26,540 nucleotides of DNA from Christensenella sp. UBA1260 (lineage in GTDB: Bacteria; Bacillota; Clostridia; Christensenellales; CAG-917): contig DBVQ01000012.1 in assembly GCA_002308155.1 (NCBI GenBank), positions 3,819-30,358 of the forward strand. Direction: 5' to 3'. Of this stretch, positions 8,529 to 26,540 are shown piece after piece. Position numbers and translations under genes: made by a program. The notes beneath the pieces were generated by a model that was not told the origin of the DNA, searched no databases, and saw only the letters and a program-made list of their open reading frames with translations. The first letter of the stretch is position 1; each line of letters opens with the position of its first letter.

Positions 8529-8654
8529 AAAAACCGCGTGATTTTGATGAGATGCGCGAAAACAAAAAAAATCACCCCGCCCAATGTACTGGCGTACATG
8601 ACGGGGTGTATTTGTTGCAGTTGACAAAGCAGATCGCAAAATCACACGGTTTTT
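8529..8654. repeat. 126-bp segment bounded by an 18-bp inverted repeat
   Basis: AAAAACCGCGTGATTTTG (8529-8546) versus the reverse complement of 8637-8654, AAAAACCGTGTGATTTTG, with one mismatch. Confidence 0.85.
8559..8608 (-). terminator. Probable terminator of the minus-strand DUF1624 gene
   Basis: CACCCCG/CGGGGTG stem (8573-8579/8602-8608) with inner ATGTAC/GTACAT stem, followed on the minus strand by ATTTTTTTTGTTTT. Confidence 0.7.
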
Positions 8655-9618
8655 AGATGCCCCAAGTGCCTGTAAGGGCAAAAGTCGCAAGTTCTAATAT
8701 TCCTGCCAGAACGACAAGGTGGGCGAGGTAGAAATAGAGGGCGTATCTGCCGACAAAGGTTATCGGGGTGTGCCACTTGCCGTCGAGTTTTGGGAGCAAA
8801 GAGCGACGTTTTGGGTAGAGGAATGGAGCAAGCAATACGCCTGCAAAGAAGAAGGCAGAATATGGGATTATGCTGAACAAATCGCCAGGGGAGATTTCAT
8901 ATTGCTCATAAAACGCCAAATGATTGCCATAGATGTCTTTTGGGGCAAAGAATATTCCAAACACTCTGTGCGTGCTCGCGGGCGGAGTGTACAAGAAATA
9001 CAGGCACAAAACGACAATGATTATTGCTGCGCTAATCCCCACAATAATCCACTTTTGATACTTGGATTTTTGGGTTGCAAGAGCGATAATTGCATACAAT
9101 AGTATGCAAAATGCCAAAAAGTGCAGTACGCCAAAGGATGTGAAGACGCTCCCCGGGGCAAGGACTTCGGTGCTGTCAAATATGAGCGTCTGCACGCCGT
9201 ACGTGACGAGCGTATACAGGAGCGCAACGAGCGCGAGCAGTCCGCCGCGTTTCAAGTTTGAGCGCGAAAATGAACACGAAATCCCTGAAATTGAGAAGAA
9301 GATAAACAGCACAATCGGGTGGATTATGCGCCTTGTGAGGCTCTCAAAAAACCAGTTGAAACAGAACACGGAAAACTTGTCCCAAAGTGCGAAATCATAA
9401 TCGTACCAAGTGGGTGCAAAAAACGCCGCAATCAGCATTGTGAGGTGGTCAAGCACCATGAGACACACACAAAAACCGCGCAAAAAATCTATTTCCCAAA
9501 CGCGCGGTTTTTTGACCGGTGTTTTTGGGGCATTTTCTTGCGGTTTTTCGACATCTAACGCGGTATTTTGACTGTCGTCGACAATCTCGTTTTGCCGGGA
9601 GGTTTGTTCGTGTTCCAT
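8653..9618 (-). CDS. DUF1624 / heparan-alpha-glucosaminide N-acetyltransferase-like membrane protein (321 aa)
   Basis: RVWEIDFLRGFCVCLMVLDH N-terminal motif, FGVLHFLA, C-terminal GRYALYFYLAH and multiple TM segments. The start is set at 9618 (MEHEQ) because a promoter lies inside the longer 9747 extension. Confidence 0.88.
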   Translation of the reverse strand: MEHEQTSRQNEIVDDSQNTALDVEKPQENAPKTPVKKPRVWEIDFLRGFCVCLMVLDHLTMLIAAFFAPTWYDYDFALWDKFSVFCFNWFFESLTRRIIHPIVLFIFFSISGISCSFSRSNLKRGGLLALVALLYTLVTYGVQTLIFDSTEVLAPGSVFTSFGVLHFLAFCILLYAIIALATQKSKYQKWIIVGISAAIIIVVLCLYFLYTPPASTHRVFGIFFAPKDIYGNHLAFYEQYEISPGDLFSIIPYSAFFFAGVLLAPFLYPKRRSLLPKLDGKWHTPITFVGRYALYFYLAHLVVLAGILELATFALTGTWGI

Positions 9619-9625
9619 ATATGAA

Positions 9626-9654
9626 ATAGTAGCATCAAGTGCCCGCCGTGTCAA
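9626..9654 (-). promoter_or_regulatory. sigA promoter placing +1 at or near the ATG (leaderless)
   Basis: Minus strand TTGACA (9654-9649), 17 nt, TG-C-TACTAT (9631-9626), 7 nt, ATG (9618). No SD. Confidence 0.75.
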
Positions 9655-9848
9655 CTGCAAAATGCAGGGGAACAACGGCGCAGCAAGCGGGGCAGACAAC
9701 AAGCTTTGTTTTGAAAAATATTTTTGAAAAAGTTTTTGCTTAAACATAGTTTATGGGTGTCACATTTGGGCGCAAATCACAATAGATTGTGTATGGATAT
9801 GCGCACGCACACTACCTGTTGCGATGAGTAAGAAAAAAAAGTTTGGTA

Positions 9849-9876
9849 TTGACTTTTAGTGCACGCGTGGTATAAT
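9849..9876 (+). promoter_or_regulatory. Near-consensus sigA promoter of the giant gene
   Basis: TTGACT (9849-9854), 16 nt, TG-G-TATAAT (9871-9876), with an A8 tract at 9833-9840 as an UP-like element. SD GGAGGAG at 9928-9934. Confidence 0.85.
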
Positions 9877-9937
9877 TATTGTGTGTAATAATCTGCACAT
9901 ACGCGCATTATACGTGCGTATGAGCATGGAGGAGATT

Positions 9938-10012
9938 ATGAAAAAGCAAAAGTTACCACTTATCTTGTTGCTCGTGCTTGTGATCTTTATGATTGCAACA
10001 CTTGCTGCATGT
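9938..10012 (+). other. Lipoprotein signal peptide (signal peptidase II) with lipobox
   Basis: MKKQK + LPLILLLVLVIFMIAT + LAAC (Cys25 at 10010-10012), followed by a Ser/Gly/Pro-rich tether NPSTRRSGGNGSSIIDVPVVPTPDEPTENE. Confidence 0.9.
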
Positions 10013-13000
10013 AACCCGTCCACTCGTAGATCGGGCGGAAACGGATCGTCAATTATTGACGTACCAGTCGTTCCGACTCCGGATGAACCGACCGAAAACG
10101 AAAGGTATCTGGGATCACAGGACGCATGGAGCATATTGAAGTTGGCGGCACTCAACGCATCCGCACAAGGCAAGGACGCAAACTTCCTCAACTTCGATAC
10201 GGCGATTAATTTCGGGTTCGCCAAAGATACATACAATGCGCAATACGTGCTGCGTATCGCAGGCAGTATCTATACGGACTTCGACAAGACGCAATCGGGC
10301 AAAGATCCGAGCACAATATTGTTTGAGCTCACAAGGACTTCCAAGAACGTTTTGCCAAATGGTGAAGAGCAGCTCATTTATGACGATGAGCCTGTCATGA
10401 GTTTGTATTATCTTGACGAACAGATCATCCTTGACATTTCCGGACTTAAGAAAGGTGCGCACGTTGTCAAGACGAGCGACATCGATCTCGCGGCTCTCAT
10501 CACAAAACTTGACGGCATCGTTGACAAGATCGGCATCTCTGACTTGTTGTGGGACAAGGTGTTCACGATGAACATCGGCCAACTCATCAAGCAACTCGCC
10601 GGCATGGACATCGTCAACGTATCGCTTGAAGATTTGATTGTAAACTTCTTGTTTGGCTCAAACAAGAGTCGTTTTATTGATTATGGCGAGGGACACACAC
10701 AACTCCAAATCCCGTGCGATCTTTCATTGATTGCATCAATTTTGCCACTTGTTCAAAGCCTTATTCCAGAAGATATCTTCGACTTGGTCGACAGAGTGCT
10801 CGGTATTGACCTCCAAAAGATCGGCGCACTCAGCGGCATGGCTCTCTACCTCCAAGCAGATATCTATGACGACAAGCTCGCCGGTATTGACGCGGACATC
10901 GACGTCAACCTCAATTCCTTCGGCAAAGAAGAAATAATCAAGAAATACGGCATATTCCAAAACGAAATCGGCATCAACCTCGGCTATACGAAGTTTGACT
11001 TTGCCGGCACTTCCGACGTCAACGTCAGAGAAGTTGTAAATACAAAGTATCAAAGCGGCCTCGACAACATCAAGGACTACTCCATCCTCACTTTCGAAGG
11101 CAGGATGACAATCAATGTCAATGCAATTGACAAGACTGTCAAGATTGACAATATCATCGGCTCGTTCGGCACATTGATTTCCGGACTGCTTGAACAATAT
11201 CTTGATGCAGACTTGCTTGCAAGTCTTGCTCCGCTCTTCCAAAAGAACGTTGACTTCCACAAGGGCACGTTCACGTTTGGTTTGAGCTTGCAGGGTACAA
11301 TCAACACGCGCGACAATTCAAAGACGAATATCGCTCTTGAATTGGTGTCTGAAGACAACACAACTGCACTCGGCGTCTACTATGTGGGCGAAATGAACGC
11401 ACTCTATATTGACGCAAGCCATCTCCTCACGGGTGTTCCGGACGGAAACGGCGGCTATTCGGGTGCAAAAGTCAAAATCACGCAATGGGAAGGCAAGCCT
11501 CTCAACCTCAATGAAATTGTTGACGGCCTCTTTGATAAGGTCGGCGACATTATTGTTAATGCAATCAACAACATTGACATCTTCAAGAAAGAAGATCAAC
11601 AAACACTTCAAAATGTGAAGGCTGTTGTTGACGGCGTGCTTGAGGACAAGACTCTCCTCATCCCGCACAACGGATTTACATCCGCAGACGATGAGCAAAC
11701 TGTCGATACAATGACGCTCATCAATATGATTCTTGATTGCATCGACATCAATATGGACGGCAACATCTTCAATATTACGGAGATCAACGTCCAAATCACA
11801 CAAGCTGTTTTGAGTGCAATCCTTGGTCTCGTCCTCAAGGGAGATAACGCAGGAATCAAGATTCCTGTCACAAACATTGATTTGCACTATGCAAACCAAG
11901 GTGTCGGCAAGATCAAGACCCTTGGCCTCAATATCGGTCTCGGCGTTGACGTGGCAGCTCCTCCTGTATCCTTGGATCTCTCGGGCAGACTCCAACTCGG
12001 TCAACTCACGGATTCAGACAGCTTCATGGGCAAGATCAACGACGTCATTGCCAGCGACAATCAATACATCTCGATTCTCGAAGACGGCACGCTTGACATA
12101 AGCAAATTCAACATTTCGTTGTCAACCGGTCTCGCGATTGATTTGTCCACAATCCAAGGCAACCTTGGCGAAATCAACATTGCACTTGACAAACTCGGAT
12201 TGGCGGACGATTTGCTCTCGGGTATGTCGGCGCAGATTTTGATGGCGCTCGGCACGATTCAAGGCGGACTCAACATCAACCTCGATGCAAGCATCGACTT
12301 GTCAATGGGTCTCTCACTTGATACGCTCCTCAATTCGCAAATCAAACTCACAATCACGAAATCGCCGAAGTATTATGACAAGACCAGCGTTCCTGTGCCT
12401 GCGGGATACGCAGACACATATTACAGCCTCAGCAGCACCGGACAATACGTCGAAGACGTAAACGGCAAGTATTGGAAGGAAGAGAAGCAATTGCTCAGCG
12501 TATGCTTGGCAGACGGCTACATCTATCTTGACTTGTCCGTGTTGTTCGTTGGTGTTGAAAAAGTCAAAGTCAAAGTTGAAGATATCATGAGTCTCTTCGC
12601 CAAAGACGAAGAGCCTGCTGCATCTGCGGCAGAAGCTCTTGCCAGCGATGAAGAGGGCGGACTCCTTGGCGACATCTCCGTTGACGATATCATCGGACTC
12701 ATCGGACTTGTTATCGGCGACATCAAGGTGACGGACGGATTTATTGAAATCGCAATCGCATCCGGCATCATTGACAACATCATGGATATGCTCGGCATCA
12801 AGGGCATTGACATCAAGTTCTATGAGGAAGACGAGGGCGCAACAGATACAACAGGCGGTATTCGTCTTGCAGTGCCTGACACGCTCAACCTTGATGACTT
12901 GCAAGTTGAAGTTTGGCTCGCAGTCGGCAAGAACCTTGACCTCACAGTCGCACTCAACGGCTTCAAGGCAGGTATTGTTGAAAGAGATCTCTCTCCTGCG

Positions 13001-16000
13001 GACAAAGACCAATACACAAATATTTTTGAAGCACCTTATGCTTCAATCGATTTAAGACTCGGATTTGACTTCTATGGCGACGAAGGCGAAACAGACTTCG
13101 AACTCGGCACAAATGCTGAGGACATAGTTGTTGTTCCGTTCACTTTCAACGATCCGATGTCCTTTGAATACAAGCTCAGAGTGGCGGGCGATCTTGACCT
13201 CACACCAATCATCGACTACTTGTTTGGCGCACCTTCAATCAACACGAAGGACAATTCAAGCGAACTCCTCATTGAAATCACGGGCTCCAAGTTCGGTCGT
13301 CAAGAGGAAGTCTTGCTTGGTTTGTACTATACGGGCGGCACGCTATATATCGATGGCGCCAACTTTGGTATCACCAGAGTTTCAACGGATATTGACCTCT
13401 ATGAACTCATCCTCAACCTCATCATGAGCGACGTCAACGTCAAGATCAACGACGTCGGCGGCTCTACTGTTGCGGACGCACTTGTGAGCGGCGATGACGA
13501 AGAGAGCAGCGGCGCAAGAGAGAAGATAGCCTTTGCGGTTATGGCACTCCTTGCTTCCGATCGTATTAAGGTTGAAGTGACAAAGGGTATCACCGAGGCA
13601 ATCTTCCAAGTCTTCGGCGTTGATACAAACAACGCAGTCGCATATCTCAGCTATGTTTGGGACAACTATCAAGAGCAAGAATACAACAGCGCTCAACAAC
13701 AATTCCCGCACGGCGACGAGATGTTCTCCTTTACAGGTGCAATTTACAACGAAAACAACCAATACATCGGTGCGGCGACAATCTATGCAAGCCACGAGAC
13801 GTCAATCAAGGTCAAGAACCAACTCAACGGCCTCACGATTGCGCACCCAGTGTATGACCCAACCACACATCAGCCAATAGACAAGGTTTACACGCTTGCG
13901 GAATACGTGCACGCGAGCAACATCCACGGCGGATTTGACGAAGTCACGCTCTTCAACGACAGCAAAGACATCGTGTTGCCAAGCGTTTTCTTGGAACTCA
14001 AGGGTACAATCTCTCTTGATGCTTCAGCGGGCAACGAAGAGTGGACAATCGGTGAGTGGATTGAAAACTTCTTGTGCGATACAGACTTTGTCAAACTTGA
14101 TGAAGACACCGGATTGTACTCCGAAGTTTACAAATATGCAGGCAACGGCAATTACAAAGTGCTCTCCGCACAAGAAAGAGACGGCTACACCGGCGACAAG
14201 TATGTCAAGGTGTATGCAGAGGGCGGCACTATCGCATTCAACAAAGTTGACGACAGAGACAGTTTGACAAGCAATTCAAACATCTTCGTCAAGGTGGGCG
14301 ATACATATAGACGCGCAGTTCTCTCCGAAGTCCCACAAAATGAAACAATCTATGAACAAGATGCATTGACCTCGTTCATTGCTGATTTGTTGCTCCAATA
14401 CAACATCCCATCCGATATTGCAAGAGAGTTTGGTTTCCGTATCGCAGTCAAGTTGAGACTCAATCCGGAAGTTCCAATCAACCTTACGGCAAATATCATC
14501 TATGCAGAACTTGGCGATGACAATCCTGCATATACAGAAGTCTATAAACTCGTCAAGAACGAATACAAGTTGTTGGAAGGCGAGGAGAGAACAAGCTATC
14601 AAGGCAAGAAGTATGTCAAACAATACTTGCCGGACGGCATCCCGCTCAAAGCAATCGGCAGCAGAACAGAGCTTGAAGGCGTTGACAAAGTCTATGTCAA
14701 GGTTGGCGACAACTTTATCAAAGTTGACCCAAGCAAAGTTGAAAACGATACGCTCTACATTGCCAAGTCCTTGCTTGACCTCAACTATATCTTGTCTCAT
14801 ACAGACCTCGCAATTGAACTCTACAACAAGAACATCACAACAGTTGACAGCATGACATCGCTTGCTGAAAAGAACAAGGCTACAATCCTTGCTGTGCGTC
14901 TTGTTGCAGAACAAGATTCCGACGGCAACTACACAGGCACAAGTTCCATCTATCTTGACTTCAAAGATGACTTCCACATGGCAATAAGCAACCTCAATCT
15001 TGCAAGCTTGCTTGATACAGTGCTTGGACTCTTCAACAAAGACGATAGTTCCAGCGGCGAGGCTCAAACCTCGGGCGAAGCACAAACATCAGGCTTGCTC
15101 GACGGCATTGATATGAGCAATCCGTCAAGCATCATTGACACGTTGAAGGGCGTCATCGGCGGTGTTATCGGCACAATCAATGCTGACCAAGAAGGCTTCA
15201 AGATCAACCTTGCACAAGGTCTTGTGCTCATGCTTGTCAACATGATCACGGGCAAGAAGATCACCGCAGACAAGTTCTTGCAACTCAATCCTGACACGAG
15301 CTTCTTGGAGTTCTATTGGGAATATGCGCTCAAGTTCAGCATCGGTATTGATCCACTTGCATTTGCAATCAGCTTGTCTCAACTCAGAATTGAGTTGGGT
15401 GGCAGCGCAAGCGTATTGCCAAGCGACTTCAACAAAGCAAATTATATGTCCGTCGATCAACTCGACGAAATCTCGCTCCAGATGGCTCTTGACCTCAACT
15501 TGAAGCTCAAGGGACAACAGGAGCAAATCAGACTTGAAAAATATCTCGACGTGCTCATTGCAGACCTCGGGCTCAAACTTGGCATCGACTTCCCAACAGT
15601 GGATATGGATGCAAGATACAGCCTGACGCTTGGCGCAAACCTCGCACTTGACGATCCGAACAGTACACAAATTGTCCTCGAACTCTTGGATATGGCAGAG
15701 GATCCTGACGACGGCGAAATCGTCATGGGTGTCTATATCGACGGTCCGGAACTCTTTGTTGATATGGGCAAGTTCTCCAAGCAAGCAATCCACGTTGCAA
15801 ATACTGACATCGCTGACCGTCTCTGCGCGTTCATAAGTGAACTCATGGGCAAGATCGGCGAAGATGTCCCAGCAATCACAACTTCGGATGCATTTACTGC
15901 GGCAGACGACGTTTCTGCTGACCAAGCTATGGCTATCATGCTGAGCCTCGCCAACGGCAAACTCGGCTTGCTCGTCACAGAAAATGTTATCATTGGTCTC

Positions 16001-19000
16001 ATCGCGGCACTTGCCGGCAACACAGCGGTCACAAACGGCAAATCCATCACGGAAATCATCAAGGAGTTTGACCTTGATCTCGCACTCAATGTTGACGTTG
16101 CTGTTTCTCCGGAAATCGCACTTGACTTGAGCTTGGACAGCAACCTCATCGCACTTGAGATTTCACTCCACGACCTTGGCATTGCAACAGGCAAAGACAA
16201 CGATACGGCAGAGGGTATTTCTCTCAAGCTTGAAAGTGCTGTTGCAAGAAAGGACCTTGTTCTTATTGAACCAGGCGATGTCATCCCAGATGCAGAAAAA
16301 TATGACGAACAAGGCAATCAAAGCAATAGCGGTGCGTACAAGAAAGTTGACCACTTCAAGCAACAAGCAGATGCTCACATAATCTCCATTGACCTCGCAA
16401 TCGTGGTCGATTACAGAGCGTGCGCAACATATGTTCGTCTTGATGACGAAACACTTGCAAACTATCCGCTTGATGAGAGATATGAAAAGAACGCAAAAGA
16501 CGGCAAATTCGTCAAAGACCCAAGAGGTCATTATGTAAGAGACGGCTTCACATACGACCAGCTTCTCGATGCAATCTTTGGTTTGCCGGCGCTTGCAAGC
16601 ATCATGTCTTATGCGCTTCCTGTCGTGCGTTTTGGCGGCGAGAGCTTTGTCTCAGCCAACACAGACGGCTCGCTCACAGTTGGTGCTTTGCTTGAGCACC
16701 TCGGCCTCAGCGTGCTCCTCGATTCTGCAATCGCTGACAGCTTCCTCGTTGAAATCGGTCTCAAAGTTGACCTTGAAAAACTTGGCTTGTTTGATGAAAC
16801 AACAGGCGATTTGAAGCCAATTGACACAATTGTCATAACAGGTGCAAACCTCATCCGCGCACTTGAAGCAAAGATTGCAATAGACTTTGACTTTGAGCAC
16901 AATCGCGGTGCAACAAAGGTTGGTATCTATCTTGCAGACGGCGAGCTCTTCCTTGACCTCTCCGGCATTGGCAGTGAAAAGATCAGAATCAGTGTTGATC
17001 CGCTTCTTGATTTGCTCACAGAAGTCATGCCAAACAACTTTGACATCAGAGAGTTCAGCTTCAAAGTTGGCGATGTGGTTGATTTGGTCAAGAACATGAT
17101 CGGCGGCGACGATGCAGGCACAGATGCAGTTGTATCGGCAGACGATGACGAAGGCGGCGTGCTTGACGGACTTGACCTCAACGGTATCATGTCAATCATC
17201 AATGCGGCAATCACAAGAATCAGCCTTGAAGCTGCAGAGTATGTCAAGAATCCGGGGCTTTACAGAGTCAAGGATTTGGGCGTTTTCCTCAGCGCAAACA
17301 TCATCAATGATTTGCTTTCAATCTTGACAGGCGAAGAGATTTACTTTGAACAAAGTGTTCTTGACGAATCTCAAAGCGGCATCTTCTTGACATTTGGCGA
17401 CGACTCCTTCAGAGACTTGTATGACAGCGATATGTGGTCATTGAGGCTCTTGTTTGCCTTGGCAAACAAAGAAGACGTCAATGCAGAAGAAGTTGACGAA
17501 GACAAGACATACAAAGTTGACATCAAGTTTGGTCTCAACCTTGAAATCAACGTTGAAAGCAGTGAAACAGTAGTAAGCCTTGTTCCGCAAAACGACAGAC
17601 TCAACTTCATCAGCCTTGACGAATATGTTGAGAACTTGCTCAATGTATTCAACAAGGTGCTTGATTGCACTTATGACGAAGTTGCATCTCCTGCTGCGGG
17701 CAAGTTGTACTATACGTTTGCAAGCGATGCAAACGGCGACTATGTCTATCAAAACGGCACCTATCGTGAGCTTTTGAACACGAAGGATGACGAAGGCAAT
17801 ATCACGGGCAAAGAAGACGCAGGCGACAAGGCTCGCTTTGCACGCAGCTATGCAATGGTTGTCGGCGGCAAGAAGAGAGCAGTGTCCTTTGTCAAAGACC
17901 CGGACGGCGAATATACGTTTGATGAAAACAAGGGCACGTTTGTCCCTGTGTACGCAGGCGTAGGCGCGAACAATATATATAGTGTTCAAGTTGGCGACGA
18001 ACTTGCAAACGACGTCAAACTTTATGCAAGAAACGACATTGAAGAGTATGTTGATCAAAACATCTCATTCAGCGTTTCCGGTCTTGTGTACTTCAATTCC
18101 AACGGAGTTGGATACTCCAACCTCGGCGGACTTTTTGAAAGCTTGCTCGGCGATATGCTCATTGAACTCCAAACACTCAGTGCATTCCACAACGGCATTG
18201 GCTTCAAGCTTTCCGCAAACCTTGACCTCGGCGCAATCAACTTTGCAGGTCTCATGGACAGCAGTGGCGATCACGGCTCAATCCTCGACAGCGACTTTGA
18301 CAAGATTGAACTTGCACTTGAACTCATTGAAACAAACACAGAAAACGACTTTGTCAAGATTCCAAAGAAACAAGGCAGCAGTACTGTCTATGTTGACAAG
18401 GTGCTTGGTGGTATTTATCTGCACAACGGTTCACTCTATCTTGACGCAACCGGTATTGTTGACGTTGCTGAAAACTACTCCAAGATTGACAACTTTATGG
18501 ATATCTTGAACGCAATCATCGACAAGGGCGGCGCGTTTATTGACAAGATCAAGACTGTGTTCAGCAGTGAAGAGAACTCAGATGCTGTGACATCCGCAGA
18601 CGGCGGCAACAACCAAGTCATCCGCGATGCAATCCTTGCACTCGTCTATGGCGACAAGGCATTCCAAATCCAACTCACACGTTCAATCCTCTCACTCCTC
18701 ATCTCTTCAATCTTGCCTGATCTCGGTTCAATTGAAGACGTGTTTGATATGTTTGAAATCTCCTTGAATGTACAACACGGCGAGGAAATCTACTCCAAGG
18801 TTGCAGATATTGAAGCGGGTGTTCCTGCTGAAGAAAAGACAAAGTATTATGAGATAGAGATTGGCGGCAATTTGTATTATGTCACCAACAGCTATCAACT
18901 CTACTATAAAGACGGCGAAGATCAATATCACGAAGCTGCTCCAGGATACGTTGGCACAACTTATGTCTTGTATTATGACGACTATCGTGAAGTCCTCCAT

Positions 19001-22000
19001 GTCTATGATTCTGTTGAAGTCTTTGACACAGAGCTCTTCAAGAAAGACAGATACACATATTTCGAGGATGAGAACTACGAGACTATTGACAACGTCAACG
19101 GCAAGTATGCTGCTGTCGAAATCAATGGTTGGACTTATCTCCCGATCAGCATCTACAACCTCTACCACAAGGATGGCGAGGGCAAGCTCGTCAAGAACGA
19201 AGGCAACAAGTTCTTGACAGCTGGTGCAAACTACATCATCTACAACGGTGCAGAGAAGGCTGTTGACAGCTTGCGCACACGTAGATTCGGCTATGTCAAG
19301 TCTGATCTTGATCATGAATACACGCTTGACAAGAACGGCATGTACAAGAAGGTTGCAGATGAATATATCCTCATGGATTATGTCGAAGCAGAAACCTATG
19401 ACGGCGATCGCTATGTCAAGGAAGGCGAGTACTATCGTTCAGTGAGATATTACAACAGACTTGACGAGTTCTTTGTTGGTCTCAACATCGCAGTCGGCAG
19501 CGTTGATATGGGCTTTGAAGTCGGCGGATTGGAGTTCGGCTTTGGCGCAGGACAAACATTGCTTCCGGATTACATCAAGGACGGCAAAGAGCACACATAC
19601 AAGCTTTTGGGACAAGAATATGTCTATGACTCATTGGATGCGGATGCTGTTGCCAATACAAAAGACCTCAGCACCAACCCGTTCTATGATACAGTCATAA
19701 GAGTTGCATTCTCTGTTGAACTTGACTTTTCTATCACAGAAAGCACATTTGACTTCGGCAAGATTTTGCACAACATCTTGGGCGACATTGATGGTATTGT
19801 GTTTGAAGCTCCAAGCACGGCAAAGCACTATTCATCCGCACACTTCCGTCTTGATTTCAGCCTCATGCTCGACATGTACGACGTCACGAACTCCGAGCTC
19901 ACGGCAGAACTCTTTGCGGTCACAGAAACAGGCTATCAATCCAAGTGGCTTGGCATTTACTATCTCAACAATGCACTCTATATTGACGCAGAAGATTTCC
20001 TCAACATCCCGAAGATCTCAATCAGTGGTCTCAACATAGTTGACCTTCTCGGCGATATTTTGGGCATGGATGGCAACGATATCTTCATCCATTGGGACGA
20101 CTTTGCAGAGTCGAGCTCTGATGCAATGACTTCTGACGATGCAGAAGTTGACTTCTCCAACAAGGACCTTGCTGCGGCATTCCTTATCAGCAGAAATCAC
20201 CTTGCAATTGCTATCGGCGACAAGATGTTTGACTATATCATCAATCTTATCTCCGAGCTCACAGATATTGATCTGTCCAAGTTCATCTACACAGCAATTG
20301 ATGGCAACTTGCTCGTCACACTTGATACAAACGACGGCATCAACCTCGAAGCACAAGCTGGCTTGCAGATTGCAGGTGACAGATTCAATGTTGTCGGCAA
20401 GGCTTCATCTGTCAAGAACAATGTCATCACAAACTTGAAGGCGAACACAAAGGAATACTATGTGTTCAGACCGGCTGATGACGCAAGAGCAACAGCACTT
20501 GGTCAAGATGCATATTACATCTCTGCAAACAGCGGACAATACTTCCGTGCAATCACACCAACTGACAAAGAAACGACAAAATATGTCAAGTACATGGTCA
20601 GCTATTTGACAAATGGTTTGGATGAGACAGTTTTGATTGGCAGATTGGTGCTCGACGGCGGCATTTTGGACGATGCTGATGAGTACATTGCCATTGACAG
20701 TGAAGAAAGCGTCTATGAGCTTGTCTCCGGCGATTCAACAAACCAAGCACTCGTCAAAGACGGAGGCAAGTATGACATCGACCTCAAGTTGTTGCTTGCA
20801 ATCCGCGACCTTGACGTACAATTTATCAATTCAAGAAACTACTCCTTGACGGAGGAAGACTTTGACCAATATATGAGTCTCAACGACCTCGACCGTATCA
20901 GCCTCACTGAGAAGATCGAGATTTCGCCAAGCCTCAAAGTCAGTGTTGATGGCGAAAACGACATTGACCTTGCAGAGCTTATTGAATACTTCTTGCCAGG
21001 CATCAGCAGCACGGATGTCATCACTCTCATTTCAGCAAAATCTGACAGCGGCACAGACGTTGACAGACAATTCTGGCTTGAGCTTACAGTTGATATCCAA
21101 CTTGCCGCACTCATGAATGCAGTGCGTACAAGCATGAGCAAGGGCACAGAAGGCGACTTGCCAATCATTGAGTATGTCAACATGCTCATCGACAAGATCA
21201 AAGGCGTGTTCGATGGCGGATTGTCAGTTGATGCAATCATTGATATCGTGCAAGATGTCGCAAGTTATATTGGTATTTCCGCAAAGATCACAACCCTCAA
21301 CGGCGAAGAGAAAGCACATGGCGAAGATCCGCATACAGTTGCAGGTCTCTATCTCCTCGGCGGCAAGTATGAACTCATGACTGCAAACGAGTACTACGAA
21401 GCAGACAACGACTATGTCGCACCGGATGAGAGATACAGCCACTACTATGAGAACAGCAAGGGCAGCTACTATTACAAGGAAGGTTATGCTGAATTGTCTG
21501 GCGCAGAACTTGTGTCCTATGAAGGCCCAAGATACAGCTTTGTCAACAACGAGTACGTTGCAGATCCAGACGGCACATTCAAGAACGTTGGCGAATATGT
21601 CTATGACACGACAAAGACAGGCGTGACAAGATATTCGTATGACTCATCTTACTGCTATGAAAACCCACTTGGCGAATATTCTCGTATCAATGGTGGTATT
21701 TATATCGACCTCAGCTACTTCAACATTCCAAGTCTCTATATCAACAGTAGAACGATGAGAAAGCTGCTTGGCAACTTGCCATCAATCCTTGGCTCGTTTG
21801 GTATCAACCTTGGCGGCGATGCAGAGTCCAGTGGCGAAGCAATGATCTCTGATGATACACAAGAGAACGAGGAGAGCGGCGAAGGCGGCGGAATTCAACT
21901 TCCACTCATTGACGATACAGTCAGCGGCTATCTCAAGACCTTCCTCTATGGCATCAGAATGACATCATCCTATATTGCTGTCATGCTTGATCCAAACTAT

Positions 22001-25000
22001 ATCAACAGCATCTTGAAGCTTATCGGCGGTGAAGACTTCACACTTCAATTTGGTTATGACTTCACAAACAAGCCTGAACTCAAGATCTATTCTGACAACC
22101 ACAGATACAACTATATGTCAATGACCGACGTGCTTGCTTCGAGCAACACAGCAGAACTTGTCAACAAGACAAGATACAGATTTGTTGTTGAAGAAGTTGA
22201 CGGCAAAGAAAACGGCATGTACTGGAAAGACGAAGACGGCGCGTTCTTCTTGAAGACAGATATGACTGTTTCTCAACGCAAGAACTACGATGCTGCTGTT
22301 GATGCAGGCACAGAGCACTACTACGACATCAGTGTTGTTGACGTCTACATCAGAGTTGACGCCAAGTATGTGCTTTACAAGAACGCAACAACGTCTCAAA
22401 TCAGACGTTCTGACAAAGACCCAGTTCTTGATGCTCAAGGCATTGTGTTCCCACAACTCTTTGTTGAAAATACAGATCATGATCTTGTCCCAGTCTCATC
22501 TTATGGCAATGACAAGATTTACTGCGTCAACGTCCTTGACAAGCGCAACCCACTCATTGGTTTGCAACTCTATTTGTGGAACTATGAAGTTGCACTCAAC
22601 ATCTATATGCCTGAGTTTGATGCTCGTGAGTTTGTCTATGTCACGGCAGAAGAAGCAGAAGCAAAGCATGTTGATGCTCCTGATGGTGCAAAATATACAA
22701 CTCAAGTCCAAGAACTCATGACCGCTGTGGACAGAGAACTCGACGGACTTGATCAATGGTATGCAGATTATTATGACAGCGGCGACTTCAACGGCGCATT
22801 TGTCCCTGCTTTGTATAATGCATCACCACGTTATTATGAATATAAGAATCAATATTATGTAATCGACGTTGACACGCTCTGCGTAAAGAACGGTGACAAC
22901 TATGATCCTGTTGGCACAATGGTCGATTATATGGCACAAATCGCAGACGAAGTGAGCCCTGCAACTTACTATGTGAAAGTTGGCACTGCCTACGTCAAAC
23001 TTCAAAGATCATTTGTCTACAGAAAGACTGTGTACGATCTCGACGGCAAACGCTTGCTTGAAGCAAACGAACTTGATGACAACTTTGCAGAAGCAACAGC
23101 AGGTTCATACAAGCTTGTCGGCAATGAATATGTCGCACTCAGCGCAGCAGAGCTCGGCACATACGTTGGACCAAGATTCAGAAATGAGGGTGTCGGCATC
23201 TACATTGAAGATCATGCAGGCACATACGGCATAAACGAAGACGGCGAATACTTTGCTCTCACAAGTGACCAAAAGGGCGAGTTTACAGGCACAAGATACA
23301 CCAAGTACTTCGTACGCGACGTGCAACCAAGCCTTGTCAGACAACCTGACATCACTTATGTTGACACGGATGACATCTTCTATGTCTCATTGAAGCTCTC
23401 CGGCAGAATTGCGTTTGAAGGCGGAAGAATCTACTCCTCATACAGCGATTATAGATCACTCTACAATGCAATCCCAGCCCATGCGGCTCTCGATGAAGCA
23501 AGCGCAGACATGAGCAATGCTGACTGGGAAGTCATCAAGTACATCTCATTCAAGTACTTCCATGGCGACTATGTACAAGTGACCGACCGCGATGAAGTTG
23601 AAGCCCTCAGAAAGAGCGGTGCGCTCTACATTTGGGCAAACAACTCCGCATATTCCGACAAGTACAGCGGTGTCAACGAACCGTTGAACGAAGTTTTGAG
23701 AGGCATCCTCGGCGACATGCAAGGTTACTTCCAAGTCACTGAGAATACAAAGATGGAAATCTTCTTTGAAATCAAACTCAACATGAGCTTTGAAATCAAC
23801 TTCATGCCTGCATTCAACATCATCGTCAGAGACCTTGACTTTGCGTTTGATGCATTTGGCAGACAAGAAGACTTGAAGACCAACCCAATCGATGTTGACT
23901 ATGACGAATCTCAATATGAGTACTTGACAGAAGAGGAGAGAGCAAACCACACAGACAAACGCTACTATGGTTCACTCACTCACGTGCTCGGCATCTACTA
24001 CAGCAACGACCACGACACAGGCAATGCAGGCCTCTATATTGACCTCAGCTGGTTGCTTGGCAACGGCGGCAAGATGTACATCGATTTGAGCGAGTACTCA
24101 GTTGAAGATGTCATTGGTGGACTCGTTGGCGACTTGCTTGCCGGCACATCCTCCGATGCACTCACTTCGGACGAAACAAAACCGACGGATAAATTAAGCA
24201 TCAACTTGTCAACAAGAAAACCGTCAATTTATATCAACATATTCACAAACGCACTTGCACTCAAGTTGACTTCAAGCTTCTTGAGCGTCATCATTGCAGA
24301 GCTTGCTCCGGATTCCGGCAACATCCTTGAGATGCTTCCGAACTTCCAAATCTACTTGAAGCAAACTCTCAATCCATATGACTTGACTCTCGGCATCTTG
24401 CTCTACAACGAAGCGGGCGACGTGCCGATCCTCGACGTCAAGATGCAAGTGTACGGACTCAACGGCGACGAATTGTCATCAAGCGTCAAGTTCGGCAGAG
24501 AAGAAGACTTCCGTAGAGACGAAGCAGCACATTCTGACGATCCAAACTACAACATCTTCTACTATGCAAACTTCTACAACGATCAAGAGAACGGTCAGTA
24601 TGCAAAGAACAAGACGTCAAAGGGCTACGTCAAAGTTGACGACACATATATTGCAAATACGTTTGAACAAAGCAGCCTTGGCAGATACAAATACGAGGGC
24701 GGAAGATACTTGCCAATGACGGAAGAAGAAGCCGGTACTTTCAAGGGCGAGAGATACACGTCCGGTGGTACTCCTGCGGCAGATGGTGCCTACAAGAAGG
24801 TCAATGAGAGCTATGAGGCCCTCACTGCAACTGAAAGAGGTACATACACAGGCGTCAGATACTTGACACACACACCGTATGAGAGATTCTCATTGCCAGG
24901 CGGCAAGTTTGTTGAAGTCACAAGCAAGGCAAGATATGCATTTGGCTCAACTCACGTGAACACATACGACAACATCCTCTATGGCGATGAAGCTGGTCTT

Positions 25001-26540
25001 GAACCGCTCTTTGACGGCAAGAAATTCAGACAAGTCTATGGCACGAGAGAGTACAACGAGTACACAGGTCCAATCTATGTCCGCAACAACAGCGAGAACA
25101 CTGTTGAGTACTTCACAAAACTTGACCTCCTCGGCTTCACAGGCGTCAACGATTTGCAATACAGAATTGCACAAAACAGCACAGAGGAATCCGATCCAAG
25201 CACAGTCTTGTTGGACGGCATCTACTACTATCCGGTTGACCCGAATGGCGATGGTCGTACGGATATGTTTGAAGCTGACGAAATCGATCCAAGCGTCAAG
25301 GTTTACAAGTATGTGAGCAACTTCACGGCTTATGAGAAGATCGGTTCTATGAACTTGAACGAACTCATCAGCAGCATAAGCGGCGGTAGCTTTGAAATCT
25401 TGTCCTTGCTCAAAGCGTTTGAGAAAGACTTCAAGACACTTGAACTCAGCCTCAACCTTGATCTTGGCCTTAGACTCAAAGACATCATCAACTGGTCAAA
25501 TATCATGACCGACTTCATTGATGATCCAAATATCGCAAGCACAGTTAAGTTCCTTGTCACATCACTTGGCGATGGATTCAACGGACATGCTGACAACGAA
25601 TCATTTGAGAGTACGATTGGTCTTGACATTGTGCTCCATGTCTATCTCAACGTCAGCAACTTGATTGCGGCAATCACAAGCCCATACGGATTTGACATCG
25701 TGTCTGCACTCAAAGGTCTCATCCTCTATGCAGAGATCACATACGACACAAACTTCCATGGCGACGACGTTGCAACCGCAAGATTGTGGGTTGAAGTCAC
25801 GGAAGATGAGTATGACGGCAGTGGCAACCTTGTCAAAGAAGGCGGCAAGCTCAACGGCTATATCGACATGAAAGAGTTTGGCGATATCGTCGGTCTTGGC
25901 GACTACTTCTCCTATGGTCTCGTTGAAGACGTTGACATCAACAACTTGCTCGGCAAGGCATCCGGACTCCTCGGCGGCTTGACATCTGCTTCAACTGATG
26001 CATATGTCTCTGCTGACGATGACGAAAACAAGTCAACAGGCGTTCTTCCGGAAAATATCTGGAACATCGTCAACGCAATCATCGGCAGACTTCTCATCGC
26101 AGACGACTTCGTGACAATCGGTCTTGATGAAAACCTCATGAACGGCGTCATCAAGCTCATCCTCGGCGAAGGCAACGAAGACCTTGTCGAAATTATCGAG
26201 AAGTTGCCGCACTTGAGAACAACAAACGACAGAAATACATCCGGTATCACAATCAACTTCTACGGCACGGCGCCAACCATTGATTTGAACTTCGGTTGGG
26301 TCGTCGGCAAGAAGTATGCACTTGCACGCACAGAGTACAACAACAAGTACGGTTCAGAGTCAGAATACCATGGCTCCGACATCGTGGCAAATCAAGCAGG
26401 CATTGCATTTGACTCAGAAGGCAAGGTCGTGGTGTCCACAGAAGGGTATGCTCTCATTGACTTCGCATATCCGGATTGGGAAGGCGACACCTACAAGTGG
26501 GTAGGCGGCACGTTTGACTATGAGGACAGAAACGCAGACA
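9938..26540 (+). CDS. Giant multi-repeat lipoprotein (>5,534 aa, partial, runs off window end)
   Basis: ATG 9938 follows GGAGGAG. I read the frame by eye to the window end (...GTFDYEDRNAD) without a stop. The start and end codon phases agree, and the ORF track lists no ORF in this frame after 9938, as expected for a stop-less ORF. Codon usage is coherent and strongly biased (CTC/CTT, GGC, GAC, AAC, ATC, GCA). Confidence 0.95.
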   Translation, partial: MKKQKLPLILLLVLVIFMIATLAACNPSTRRSGGNGSSIIDVPVVPTPDEPTENERYLGSQDAWSILKLAALNASAQGKDANFLNFDTAINFGFAKDTYNAQYVLRIAGSIYTDFDKTQSGKDPSTILFELTRTSKNVLPNGEEQLIYDDEPVMSLYYLDEQIILDISGLKKGAHVVKTSDIDLAALITKLDGIVDKIGISDLLWDKVFTMNIGQLIKQLAGMDIVNVSLEDLIVNFLFGSNKSRFIDYGEGHTQLQIPCDLSLIASILPLVQSLIPEDIFDLVDRVLGIDLQKIGALSGMALYLQADIYDDKLAGIDADIDVNLNSFGKEEIIKKYGIFQNEIGINLGYTKFDFAGTSDVNVREVVNTKYQSGLDNIKDYSILTFEGRMTINVNAIDKTVKIDNIIGSFGTLISGLLEQYLDADLLASLAPLFQKNVDFHKGTFTFGLSLQGTINTRDNSKTNIALELVSEDNTTALGVYYVGEMNALYIDASHLLTGVPDGNGGYSGAKVKITQWEGKPLNLNEIVDGLFDKVGDIIVNAINNIDIFKKEDQQTLQNVKAVVDGVLEDKTLLIPHNGFTSADDEQTVDTMTLINMILDCIDINMDGNIFNITEINVQITQAVLSAILGLVLKGDNAGIKIPVTNIDLHYANQGVGKIKTLGLNIGLGVDVAAPPVSLDLSGRLQLGQLTDSDSFMGKINDVIASDNQYISILEDGTLDISKFNISLSTGLAIDLSTIQGNLGEINIALDKLGLADDLLSGMSAQILMALGTIQGGLNINLDASIDLSMGLSLDTLLNSQIKLTITKSPKYYDKTSVPVPAGYADTYYSLSSTGQYVEDVNGKYWKEEKQLLSVCLADGYIYLDLSVLFVGVEKVKVKVEDIMSLFAKDEEPAASAAEALASDEEGGLLGDISVDDIIGLIGLVIGDIKVTDGFIEIAIASGIIDNIMDMLGIKGIDIKFYEEDEGATDTTGGIRLAVPDTLNLDDLQVEVWLAVGKNLDLTVALNGFKAGIVERDLSPADKDQYTNIFEAPYASIDLRLGFDFYGDEGETDFELGTNAEDIVVVPFTFNDPMSFEYKLRVAGDLDLTPIIDYLFGAPSINTKDNSSELLIEITGSKFGRQEEVLLGLYYTGGTLYIDGANFGITRVSTDIDLYELILNLIMSDVNVKINDVGGSTVADALVSGDDEESSGAREKIAFAVMALLASDRIKVEVTKGITEAIFQVFGVDTNNAVAYLSYVWDNYQEQEYNSAQQQFPHGDEMFSFTGAIYNENNQYIGAATIYASHETSIKVKNQLNGLTIAHPVYDPTTHQPIDKVYTLAEYVHASNIHGGFDEVTLFNDSKDIVLPSVFLELKGTISLDASAGNEEWTIGEWIENFLCDTDFVKLDEDTGLYSEVYKYAGNGNYKVLSAQERDGYTGDKYVKVYAEGGTIAFNKVDDRDSLTSNSNIFVKVGDTYRRAVLSEVPQNETIYEQDALTSFIADLLLQYNIPSDIAREFGFRIAVKLRLNPEVPINLTANIIYAELGDDNPAYTEVYKLVKNEYKLLEGEERTSYQGKKYVKQYLPDGIPLKAIGSRTELEGVDKVYVKVGDNFIKVDPSKVENDTLYIAKSLLDLNYILSHTDLAIELYNKNITTVDSMTSLAEKNKATILAVRLVAEQDSDGNYTGTSSIYLDFKDDFHMAISNLNLASLLDTVLGLFNKDDSSSGEAQTSGEAQTSGLLDGIDMSNPSSIIDTLKGVIGGVIGTINADQEGFKINLAQGLVLMLVNMITGKKITADKFLQLNPDTSFLEFYWEYALKFSIGIDPLAFAISLSQLRIELGGSASVLPSDFNKANYMSVDQLDEISLQMALDLNLKLKGQQEQIRLEKYLDVLIADLGLKLGIDFPTVDMDARYSLTLGANLALDDPNSTQIVLELLDMAEDPDDGEIVMGVYIDGPELFVDMGKFSKQAIHVANTDIADRLCAFISELMGKIGEDVPAITTSDAFTAADDVSADQAMAIMLSLANGKLGLLVTENVIIGLIAALAGNTAVTNGKSITEIIKEFDLDLALNVDVAVSPEIALDLSLDSNLIALEISLHDLGIATGKDNDTAEGISLKLESAVARKDLVLIEPGDVIPDAEKYDEQGNQSNSGAYKKVDHFKQQADAHIISIDLAIVVDYRACATYVRLDDETLANYPLDERYEKNAKDGKFVKDPRGHYVRDGFTYDQLLDAIFGLPALASIMSYALPVVRFGGESFVSANTDGSLTVGALLEHLGLSVLLDSAIADSFLVEIGLKVDLEKLGLFDETTGDLKPIDTIVITGANLIRALEAKIAIDFDFEHNRGATKVGIYLADGELFLDLSGIGSEKIRISVDPLLDLLTEVMPNNFDIREFSFKVGDVVDLVKNMIGGDDAGTDAVVSADDDEGGVLDGLDLNGIMSIINAAITRISLEAAEYVKNPGLYRVKDLGVFLSANIINDLLSILTGEEIYFEQSVLDESQSGIFLTFGDDSFRDLYDSDMWSLRLLFALANKEDVNAEEVDEDKTYKVDIKFGLNLEINVESSETVVSLVPQNDRLNFISLDEYVENLLNVFNKVLDCTYDEVASPAAGKLYYTFASDANGDYVYQNGTYRELLNTKDDEGNITGKEDAGDKARFARSYAMVVGGKKRAVSFVKDPDGEYTFDENKGTFVPVYAGVGANNIYSVQVGDELANDVKLYARNDIEEYVDQNISFSVSGLVYFNSNGVGYSNLGGLFESLLGDMLIELQTLSAFHNGIGFKLSANLDLGAINFAGLMDSSGDHGSILDSDFDKIELALELIETNTENDFVKIPKKQGSSTVYVDKVLGGIYLHNGSLYLDATGIVDVAENYSKIDNFMDILNAIIDKGGAFIDKIKTVFSSEENSDAVTSADGGNNQVIRDAILALVYGDKAFQIQLTRSILSLLISSILPDLGSIEDVFDMFEISLNVQHGEEIYSKVADIEAGVPAEEKTKYYEIEIGGNLYYVTNSYQLYYKDGEDQYHEAAPGYVGTTYVLYYDDYREVLHVYDSVEVFDTELFKKDRYTYFEDENYETIDNVNGKYAAVEINGWTYLPISIYNLYHKDGEGKLVKNEGNKFLTAGANYIIYNGAEKAVDSLRTRRFGYVKSDLDHEYTLDKNGMYKKVADEYILMDYVEAETYDGDRYVKEGEYYRSVRYYNRLDEFFVGLNIAVGSVDMGFEVGGLEFGFGAGQTLLPDYIKDGKEHTYKLLGQEYVYDSLDADAVANTKDLSTNPFYDTVIRVAFSVELDFSITESTFDFGKILHNILGDIDGIVFEAPSTAKHYSSAHFRLDFSLMLDMYDVTNSELTAELFAVTETGYQSKWLGIYYLNNALYIDAEDFLNIPKISISGLNIVDLLGDILGMDGNDIFIHWDDFAESSSDAMTSDDAEVDFSNKDLAAAFLISRNHLAIAIGDKMFDYIINLISELTDIDLSKFIYTAIDGNLLVTLDTNDGINLEAQAGLQIAGDRFNVVGKASSVKNNVITNLKANTKEYYVFRPADDARATALGQDAYYISANSGQYFRAITPTDKETTKYVKYMVSYLTNGLDETVLIGRLVLDGGILDDADEYIAIDSEESVYELVSGDSTNQALVKDGGKYDIDLKLLLAIRDLDVQFINSRNYSLTEEDFDQYMSLNDLDRISLTEKIEISPSLKVSVDGENDIDLAELIEYFLPGISSTDVITLISAKSDSGTDVDRQFWLELTVDIQLAALMNAVRTSMSKGTEGDLPIIEYVNMLIDKIKGVFDGGLSVDAIIDIVQDVASYIGISAKITTLNGEEKAHGEDPHTVAGLYLLGGKYELMTANEYYEADNDYVAPDERYSHYYENSKGSYYYKEGYAELSGAELVSYEGPRYSFVNNEYVADPDGTFKNVGEYVYDTTKTGVTRYSYDSSYCYENPLGEYSRINGGIYIDLSYFNIPSLYINSRTMRKLLGNLPSILGSFGINLGGDAESSGEAMISDDTQENEESGEGGGIQLPLIDDTVSGYLKTFLYGIRMTSSYIAVMLDPNYINSILKLIGGEDFTLQFGYDFTNKPELKIYSDNHRYNYMSMTDVLASSNTAELVNKTRYRFVVEEVDGKENGMYWKDEDGAFFLKTDMTVSQRKNYDAAVDAGTEHYYDISVVDVYIRVDAKYVLYKNATTSQIRRSDKDPVLDAQGIVFPQLFVENTDHDLVPVSSYGNDKIYCVNVLDKRNPLIGLQLYLWNYEVALNIYMPEFDAREFVYVTAEEAEAKHVDAPDGAKYTTQVQELMTAVDRELDGLDQWYADYYDSGDFNGAFVPALYNASPRYYEYKNQYYVIDVDTLCVKNGDNYDPVGTMVDYMAQIADEVSPATYYVKVGTAYVKLQRSFVYRKTVYDLDGKRLLEANELDDNFAEATAGSYKLVGNEYVALSAAELGTYVGPRFRNEGVGIYIEDHAGTYGINEDGEYFALTSDQKGEFTGTRYTKYFVRDVQPSLVRQPDITYVDTDDIFYVSLKLSGRIAFEGGRIYSSYSDYRSLYNAIPAHAALDEASADMSNADWEVIKYISFKYFHGDYVQVTDRDEVEALRKSGALYIWANNSAYSDKYSGVNEPLNEVLRGILGDMQGYFQVTENTKMEIFFEIKLNMSFEINFMPAFNIIVRDLDFAFDAFGRQEDLKTNPIDVDYDESQYEYLTEEERANHTDKRYYGSLTHVLGIYYSNDHDTGNAGLYIDLSWLLGNGGKMYIDLSEYSVEDVIGGLVGDLLAGTSSDALTSDETKPTDKLSINLSTRKPSIYINIFTNALALKLTSSFLSVIIAELAPDSGNILEMLPNFQIYLKQTLNPYDLTLGILLYNEAGDVPILDVKMQVYGLNGDELSSSVKFGREEDFRRDEAAHSDDPNYNIFYYANFYNDQENGQYAKNKTSKGYVKVDDTYIANTFEQSSLGRYKYEGGRYLPMTEEEAGTFKGERYTSGGTPAADGAYKKVNESYEALTATERGTYTGVRYLTHTPYERFSLPGGKFVEVTSKARYAFGSTHVNTYDNILYGDEAGLEPLFDGKKFRQVYGTREYNEYTGPIYVRNNSENTVEYFTKLDLLGFTGVNDLQYRIAQNSTEESDPSTVLLDGIYYYPVDPNGDGRTDMFEADEIDPSVKVYKYVSNFTAYEKIGSMNLNELISSISGGSFEILSLLKAFEKDFKTLELSLNLDLGLRLKDIINWSNIMTDFIDDPNIASTVKFLVTSLGDGFNGHADNESFESTIGLDIVLHVYLNVSNLIAAITSPYGFDIVSALKGLILYAEITYDTNFHGDDVATARLWVEVTEDEYDGSGNLVKEGGKLNGYIDMKEFGDIVGLGDYFSYGLVEDVDINNLLGKASGLLGGLTSASTDAYVSADDDENKSTGVLPENIWNIVNAIIGRLLIADDFVTIGLDENLMNGVIKLILGEGNEDLVEIIEKLPHLRTTNDRNTSGITINFYGTAPTIDLNFGWVVGKKYALARTEYNNKYGSESEYHGSDIVANQAGIAFDSEGKVVVSTEGYALIDFAYPDWEGDTYKWVGGTFDYEDRNAD

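Follow-up and report, generated by a model that had tools for sequence, protein, structure and literature searches.

Giant1-5, the extracellular giants of Apilactobacillus kunkeei, measure 3,000-8,000 amino acids (aa) and are encoded in a 1.5-Mb genome (PMC12863079). Together with Ebh, the serine-rich repeat (SRR) adhesins and other giant surface proteins of Gram-positive bacteria, they are among the closest described counterparts of a gene in Christensenella sp. UBA1260 that fills most of a 26,540-nucleotide stretch of DNA (contig DBVQ01000012.1, positions 3819-30358; the window, whose numbering is used below unless the contig is named). Like Giant1-5 (PMC12863079), Ebh and the SRR adhesins, its product is a secreted protein in the 3,000-10,000-aa range from a member of the Bacillota with a small genome, and it is likewise elongated, takes up a percent-level share of the genome, is restricted to one lineage and evolves fast. 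Unlike them, it lacks beta-solenoid, FIVAR/GA, Rib and SRR domains and is built of a new ~250-aa module; it has an N-terminal lipid anchor instead of an LPXTG or C-terminal one, and is encoded by a single gene, not by a cluster. The favoured reading, given a probability of about 0.5, sees in it an adhesin or surface fibre of giant size that is held by a lipid anchor.

The initial annotation of this locus had proposed instead a string of LolA/LppX-like lipid-binding half-barrels, or a continuous lipid groove, and three groups of proteins are therefore relevant to the module. LolA, LolB, LppX/LprG and DUF6612 proteins resemble it in element count (~11 strands and three helices), one-sided hydrophobic strands and lipoprotein context. 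AsmA-like or repeating-beta-groove (RBG) proteins, e.g., TamB, YhdP and VPS13, are likewise very long, with repeated antiparallel beta-meanders, a hydrophobic face and disordered loops. The DUF4925 proteins of Bacteroidota are also lipoproteins, have an ~200-aa antiparallel-beta domain with a hydrophobic interior and form the nearest cluster in a language-model comparison. According to a 2026 paper, one of them, A6LA28 from Parabacteroides distasonis, binds lipopolysaccharide (LPS) and triacyl lipopeptide, and a predicted hydrophobic "chalice" of antiparallel strands is needed for its binding activity (PMC13034630).

An intact lipoprotein gene with a divergent repeat array

A single open reading frame (ORF) of 5,553 codons runs from 9881 to the end of the window, as seen in the ORF listing and its translation; the features of the gene given below all lie on the forward strand. 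A sigma-70-type promoter can be read at 9850-9878 (TTGACT, a 17-nt spacer and TATAAT). The GTG at 9881, which the ORF lister took as the start, is unlikely to be the real one because it lies directly behind the -10 box. A Shine-Dalgarno sequence GGAGG (9929-9933) precedes an ATG at 9938, which is therefore taken as the start codon (both within 9929-9940). The translation opens with a lipoprotein signal peptide (9938-10012) made of MKKQK, a hydrophobic core and the lipobox L-A-A-C, with the Cys codon at 10010-10012. The N-terminus is the same in the ortholog from the closest species genome (G005), and Lgt (PF01790) scores above its cut-off in the host genome and in four congeners. The signal, its LAAC lipobox and the presence of Lgt bear out the membrane anchoring that had been proposed for the chain.

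The window holds the first ~5,530 codons of the gene (9938-26540). The frame then continues for ~3,500 aa, through three N runs, to contig position ~40839; four open pieces on the contig sum to 8,957 aa, and the whole protein comes to ~9,050 aa. The feature placed by the initial annotation at 10100-26540 is real, but its limits are not those of the gene, which begins at 9938 and extends well past the window. The N runs lie just beyond it (contig 30359-30498, 32748-32792 and 34676-34755), and the apparent frame is shifted there; they are gaps or masked bases, not stops, and each of the four pieces is fully open. The gap-free G005 ortholog is 9,540 aa long, counted from the corresponding GTG.

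A reading of the gene as an artefact or pseudogene was rejected, as the frames are open in 21 genomes and the gene is covered by independent runs of rumen DNA in which an in-frame 3-nt change is the sole variant. This change, a deletion at window position 20669 in contigs of one bovine gut DNA run (X1), fits length differences between strains that preserve the frame. Contig pieces from RNA libraries of three rumen metatranscriptomes also map along the gene, with possible DNA carry-over. In one relative, 55-66% identical (L003:6388-29717; ENA ERZ1052052 scaffold_5003), the annotation splits the gene into three successive ORFs (469, 3,983 and >4,080 aa), which points to frameshifts or assembly errors, or to a truly split gene. 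On the reverse strand, the span of the giant gene (window 10115-26256) also contains many antisense ORFs, each 100-270 aa long. They are most likely a by-product of the composition of the sense frame and not genes; the antisense strand of one ortholog segment (L020) is likewise fully open.

The body of the protein is a chain of divergent repeats of ~250 aa each. All 13 coordinates at which a recurring motif had been noted carry the expected peptides in the frame of the giant ORF, and the strict form of the motif occurs at eight places, whereas 500 shuffled versions of the protein average 0.002 matches. A hidden Markov model (HMM) seeded on these eight sites finds 12 units in the window, in agreement with the ~12 first proposed, and 14-15 in the full gene. 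In leave-one-out scoring, each of 14 units exceeds all 200 of its own shuffles (7.8-46.5 bits vs at most 10.9); unit 1, for example, scores 18.5 bits against no more than 10.9. The same HMM recovers the same 15 units in the G005 ortholog, which is independent as well as gap-free, and between 9 and 14 units in each of the full-length relatives; in all, about 70 proteins contributed 575 units. The unit is absent from every other ORF of the host genome, which is 68% complete.

The shortest spacing between motif sites is 274 aa, close to the ~275 aa claimed; where sites lie farther apart, Tyr-rich inserts separate or interrupt the units. About 40% of the junctions count as direct, with no more than 15 aa between units, and the others hold 25-450 aa. 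A boundary motif of the form P-x-D-F/Y...Y, one of the initial observations, is conserved between orthologs, and the ortholog alignment (A2) shows no variation at L352, P353, F356 and Y361.

Amino-acid positions in the array follow the numbering of protein P0001, in which window position 10100 is aa 74. Units 1 to 4 occupy 10100-10957 (aa 74-359), 11087-12046 (aa 403-722), 12047-12958 (aa 723-1026) and 12986-13822 (aa 1036-1314). A Tyr-rich insert region with two 35-aa mini-modules (13823-14590; aa 1411-1446 and 1549-1583) leads to unit 5 (14591-15436, aa 1571-1852), followed by unit 6, the one that was modelled (15422-16207, aa 1848-2109), unit 7 (16625-17527, aa 2249-2549) and unit 8 (18002-18889, aa 2708-3003). 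The next Tyr-rich insert (18890-19618), with up to 17% Tyr per 100 aa and one mini-module (aa 3149-3183), precedes unit 9 (19619-20428, aa 3247-3516). Unit 10 (20849-22207, aa 3657-4109) has an ~110-aa Tyr-rich insert within its central hairpin, so the paired motif sites at 21341 and 21692 are the two halves of one hairpin parted by this insert. A long Tyr-rich insert with two mini-modules (22208-23641; aa 4404-4478) separates it from unit 11 (23642-24448, aa 4588-4856), and another with two mini-modules (24449-25369; aa 4930-4999) lies before unit 12 (25370-26317, aa 5164-5479), the last in the window; two to three further units follow downstream on the contig. Units 1-5, 7-9, 11 and 12 are supported by the HMM and leave-one-out scoring, unit 10 by the HMM and the paired motif sites, and unit 6 by AlphaFold2 (AF2) modelling and strand amphipathicity.

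The Tyr-rich inserts hold ~10 copies of the 35-aa mini-module. In a two-unit AF2 model, it appears as a beta-hairpin, a short helix and a strand (residues 24-134, predicted local distance difference test (pLDDT) 70-88). Two other large ORFs of the host genome share it: a 3,656-aa ORF with a signal peptide and a C-terminal transmembrane (TM) anchor (G000:C75:26-10993, reverse strand) and a 1,003-aa ORF with N-terminal TM segments and a charged tail (G000:C32:1827-4835, reverse strand).

Fold of the unit and its bearing on lipid binding

Unit 6 was modelled with AF2 on an alignment of 116 units (A3), giving a pLDDT of 77 and a predicted template-modelling score (pTM) of 0.68, with moderate confidence in the helical half. 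The model has ~11 strands and three helices with a conserved acidic loop between them, arranged as six meander strands, a helix, the acidic loop, a short hairpin, two helices and three strands. Two of the meander strands are 14 residues long, and the meander reaches pLDDT values above 90; the acidic loop is modelled with low confidence, and the short hairpin is helical according to AF2, yet its hydrophobicity alternates. Across the 116 aligned units every predicted strand alternates, with strand columns switching between a mean Kyte-Doolittle value of +3 to +4 and one of -1 to -3. The description of the chain as a series of repeated, beta-rich amphipathic modules therefore holds in the HMM, in leave-one-out scoring, in the AF2 model and in strand alternation.

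The acidic loop has the core [ED]-A-x-T-A-A-[DE], found once per unit between window positions 11672 and 26026, and its Ala is present in 89% of the 575 units. Mean-field direct coupling analysis (DCA) of these units shows local hairpins and a few cross-domain couplings and is too noisy for a topology. The loop is coupled to several elements, the central hairpin and the helices included, and for this reason is probably packed and not a free linker; a packing element, a metal site and a modification site are the candidates for its role. The within-unit couplings, which include b4-b8 and those of the acidic motif with several elements, suggest that the units are self-contained domains.

No known domain was found along the protein. 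Pfam and NCBIfam give nothing at E<=1 in the window part and one sub-threshold chance match in the rest, and 116 single units and the C-terminal parts of four relatives give chance-level matches only. Enzyme, toxin or transporter domains were found nowhere in the protein. Against PDB sequences, neither the unit profile (E<=10) nor the C-terminal 2,028 aa has a match. Foldseek compared the unit model with the PDB at a best E of 5.5e-3, with template-modelling (TM) scores of at most 0.17 and a root-mean-square deviation above 20 angstroms, in a list led by CD1/MHC-like, FatA and FMO chains that amounts to noise; for both AF2 models, MHC/CD1-like, FatA, FMO, TbpB and FlgH matches were set aside as noise, nothing falling below E 2e-3. 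The unit model has no match in BFVD either. An exhaustive HMMER search with a two-unit ortholog profile against 1.84 billion cluster representatives returned 47 proteins, which, as far as checked, are all family members or fragments. A k-mer-seeded search for single-domain relatives with the 116-unit profile gave fragments only, and a search with the C-terminal region gave only fragments labelled "hypothetical protein". Judged by these sequence searches, this is a narrowly distributed orphan family, and its unit a new domain family.

The resemblance to LolA, LppX, DUF6612 or RBG folds is not supported by these comparisons, as no Pfam, profile or Foldseek result links the unit to any of them. 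The LolA structure has 11 strands and three helices; the equal count in the unit may serve as a lead only. LolA, LolB and LppX_LprAFG have no Pfam match in the window protein or in the 116 units. The Foldseek comparison with the PDB found no structural similarity to LolA-like or RBG folds, an outcome that the initial annotation had named as refuting its proposal, which fails at this level: chains of LolA, LolB, LprG and TamB are missing from the top 50 of the unit model, and the weaker two-unit model, with TM scores of at most 0.3 overall, picks up one LolA chain at a non-significant E of 0.21 (TMt 0.29). No candidate for DUF6612 (PF20316) was found in the host genome, and hhalign gives a probability of 0.08% for the unit alignment A3 against an eight-member DUF6612 alignment from eight Clostridia genomes. 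The unit, at ~250 aa and with 14-residue strands, also differs from LolA/LolB, LppX/LprG and DUF6612 in its conserved acidic loop, which those families lack.

A language-model feature search with one unit ranks DUF4925 first (0.92, 0.91 and 0.91, with 172, 168 and 164 shared features), followed by DUF6583 (0.85) and DUF6612 (0.81), scores that are to be read against the 4-10% of shuffled proteins that also reach an Atlas score of at least 0.9 and against a split family vote among the top matches. The DUF4925 HMM (PF16272) has no match in the host genome at E<=0.01, nor in the 116 units, and both DUF6583 and DUF4925 are absent from 301 genomes of the phylum. DUF4925 proteins, which lack HMM-level similarity to the unit, are single-domain proteins of 330 aa from diderm bacteria, whereas here the module forms a 15-fold array in a monoderm. 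The DUF4925 neighbourhood may serve as a lead.

Such a lead would fit a scavenger of lipids or other hydrophobic ligands, in which each unit would be a curved sheet with a helical lid around a hydrophobic pocket, as in the DUF4925 "chalice" or LolA/LprG, and the anchored chain would take up fatty acids or lipids from rumen fluid or from neighbouring cells on behalf of a bacterium unable to make them. Each unit has ~45 inward hydrophobic strand positions and ~16 hydrophobic helix positions, so the sheet would have to curl or pair; the language-model neighbours point the same way, as does the LPS and lipopeptide binding of the one DUF4925 protein through a beta-rich hydrophobic pocket (PMC13034630). 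Yet no sequence, profile or structure test ties the unit to any lipid carrier, the shuffles temper the Atlas scores, fifteen pockets on a ~9,000-aa tether would be a costly design for uptake, and no transporter partner adjoins the gene. Ligand capture of this kind is considered unlikely. The more specific version, in which the units are hydrophobic-pocket domains distantly akin to the DUF4925 "chalice" and the chain is a multivalent harvester that would supply a monoderm rumen bacterium lacking type II fatty-acid synthesis with acyl lipids from the surroundings or from neighbouring cells, is quite unlikely.

Successive sheets might alternatively join into one continuous groove, as in AsmA, TamB or VPS13, and form a conduit that leads from the membrane to another surface. 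The meander strands are long (14-15 residues) and have one fully hydrophobic face, the disordered loop of each unit could act as a groove-crossing element, and ~40% of the junctions are direct. Strand amphipathicity is no argument for an open groove, however, because any beta-sandwich or barrel has it. AsmA, AsmA_2, TamB (DUF490), DUF748 and Chorein_N have no match in the protein or in the 116 units, and neither sequence nor structure relates it to RBG proteins, from which it also differs in having a lipobox anchor in place of an N-terminal TM helix. Inserts of 25-450 aa separate the units at more than half of the junctions, and the long-range couplings within units suggest self-contained domains that pack internally. 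DCA across 215 direct junctions (effective number of sequences 189; noisy) shows no antiparallel b11(n)-b1(n+1) streak, and the two-unit AF2 model on alignment A2 has a pTM of only 0.42. There is, furthermore, no second membrane for a conduit to bridge, Omp85 not having been found. A continuous groove is accordingly regarded as highly improbable.

Distribution, neighbourhood and host

Orthologs of the gene were found within one genus of uncultured rumen Clostridia. In the GTDB set, 21 of its 24 species genomes have one, in a single copy and mostly as open frames of 7,400-9,583 aa, with two shorter frames on short contigs; it was not found in the other three, two of which are 91-95% complete, nor did the same query detect it in 16 genomes that represent other families of the order. 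All 18 of the 20-kb N-terminal stretches fetched are open end to end, including one cut by a contig end. The nearest records are titled "MAG: Clostridia bacterium RGIG7896", from water-buffalo reticulum, and "uncultured Clostridiales bacterium RUG767", and the sequence is seen in many bovine and sheep gut metagenomes. Genomes of the genus measure 1.3-1.9 Mb, so one gene takes up ~2% of the genome.

The order orf649, bPH_2, acyltransferase_3 and giant gene is kept in three relatives. The giant gene evolves a little faster than most genes around it, its product being 55-77% identical between relatives and theirs 59-91%. Directly upstream, on the reverse strand, lies a divergent membrane acyltransferase of the acyltransferase_3/HGSNAT type (8653-9747), whose placement is the same in the three relatives and which possibly modifies a surface polymer or the giant protein itself. 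The 649-aa ORF (5488-7437, forward strand) has a sub-threshold match to the catalytic domain of GH127 beta-L-arabinofuranosidase (E=0.002, 17.6 bits vs a cut-off of 24.9) and is syntenic in the three relatives at 80-84% identity. The giant gene is directly followed by one whose product is an SPFH/Band-7 protein carrying triple zinc ribbons (L001:10571-11695, forward strand), and then by one for a second zinc-ribbon protein. None of the neighbours (an esterase, the GH127-like ORF, bPH_2, acyltransferase_3, SPFH with zinc ribbons and housekeeping genes) was accepted as an operon partner.

A structural role in the envelope, as a wall-spanning scaffold or coat that is S-layer-like or organises the wall, would suit a single copy conserved in nearly all species and a synteny kept beside a membrane acyltransferase. 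It would also suit the strongly acidic protein (net charge -0.06 to -0.09 per residue), the missing sortase and the lack of an SLH match in the giant protein. A 9,000-aa monomer would nevertheless be unusual as the building block of a lattice, divergence is fast for a structural core component, and the three genomes in which the gene was not found argue against essentiality. This role is held to be rather improbable.

The monoderm nature of the host, assumed from the outset, is supported: four genomes of 97-98% completeness yielded no Omp85/BamA, penicillin-binding proteins are present, and the records of relatives are titled Clostridia. Sortase (PF04203) was not found in five genomes, and the protein has no LPXTG motif, in contrast to the sortase-anchored MSCRAMM-type adhesins. 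The host looks like a walled monoderm whose surface proteins are anchored by lipid or by TM segments.

In 23 of the 24 genomes of the genus no FabF was detected (the remaining one has a weak partial match), and no FabZ in the five searched, while DegV/FakB and PlsX are present. Because FabF and FabZ were not found and DegV/FakB and PlsX are kept, the genus is probably a fatty-acid auxotroph that depends on exogenous fatty acids, a physiology that would favour capture of lipids by the giant protein. However, 10 of 16 further families in the order likewise show no FabF, and the giant protein occurs in none of these 16. The auxotrophy is thus permissive and not specific, as it is common to families that lack the giant gene, and loss of type II fatty-acid synthesis was rejected as specific evidence for the role of the gene.

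A proposed lipid-anchored fibre with a beta-rich distal end

Beyond aa ~6,400, the protein continues for ~2,600 beta-rich residues and ends with neither an LPXTG motif nor a TM segment. In language-model features, the C-terminal region is nearest to Big_3, Big_4, Big_2, SSURE and Rib clusters (0.77-0.85), and faint Big_4 HMM matches occur in the C-terminal parts of relatives, one at E=0.004. By these sequence comparisons, the region is probably Ig-like.

In the proposed surface fibre or adhesin, the Sec system would export the protein and the Cys after the LAAC lipobox would be lipidated, tethering the chain to the outer face of the cytoplasmic membrane; the lipid would stand in for LPXTG anchoring in a genus with no detected sortase. 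The first ~6,400 aa would form a stalk of ~15 beads, each one an alpha/beta module of ~250 aa with ~11 strictly amphipathic strands, three amphipathic helices and the acidic loop [ED]-A-x-T-A-A-D, decorated by the Tyr-rich inserts with their 35-aa mini-modules. The beta-rich last ~2,600 aa, having no C-terminal anchor, would be the distal end. Such an adhesin or "antenna" would reach through and past the wall and may bind plant-fibre glycans, other cells or host material.

The features of giant adhesins are all found here: a secretion signal, a tandem-repeat stalk, a beta-rich distal region (although its Ig-like nature is weakly supported), lineage restriction and fast evolution. The conserved number and order of modules in orthologs also speak for a fibre. 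Several points weigh on the other side. None of the known stalk or tip domains of adhesins matches at a significant level. The modelled unit fold matches nothing solved, so that "stalk bead" would be a reading by exclusion, and the Ig-like call stands on language-model scores of 0.77-0.85 and one HMM match at E=0.004. Amphipathic sheets, the lipoprotein signal, an auxotrophic host and the DUF4925 neighbourhood also fit a binder of hydrophobic ligands.

Whatever its ligand, the genus devotes ~2% of its genome to one gene, kept intact across the genus, with no credible match to a curated family or a solved structure in ~9,000 residues. The module would represent a new domain family, of which more than 570 copies were gathered, and the protein a new build of giant Gram-positive surface protein, lipid-anchored and sortase-independent. 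If lipid capture were its function, no earlier example of an extracellular multi-pocket lipid harvester would exist in a fatty-acid-auxotrophic monoderm. As an adhesin, it would probably control the attachment of abundant, small-genome rumen bacteria to fibre or to partner cells.

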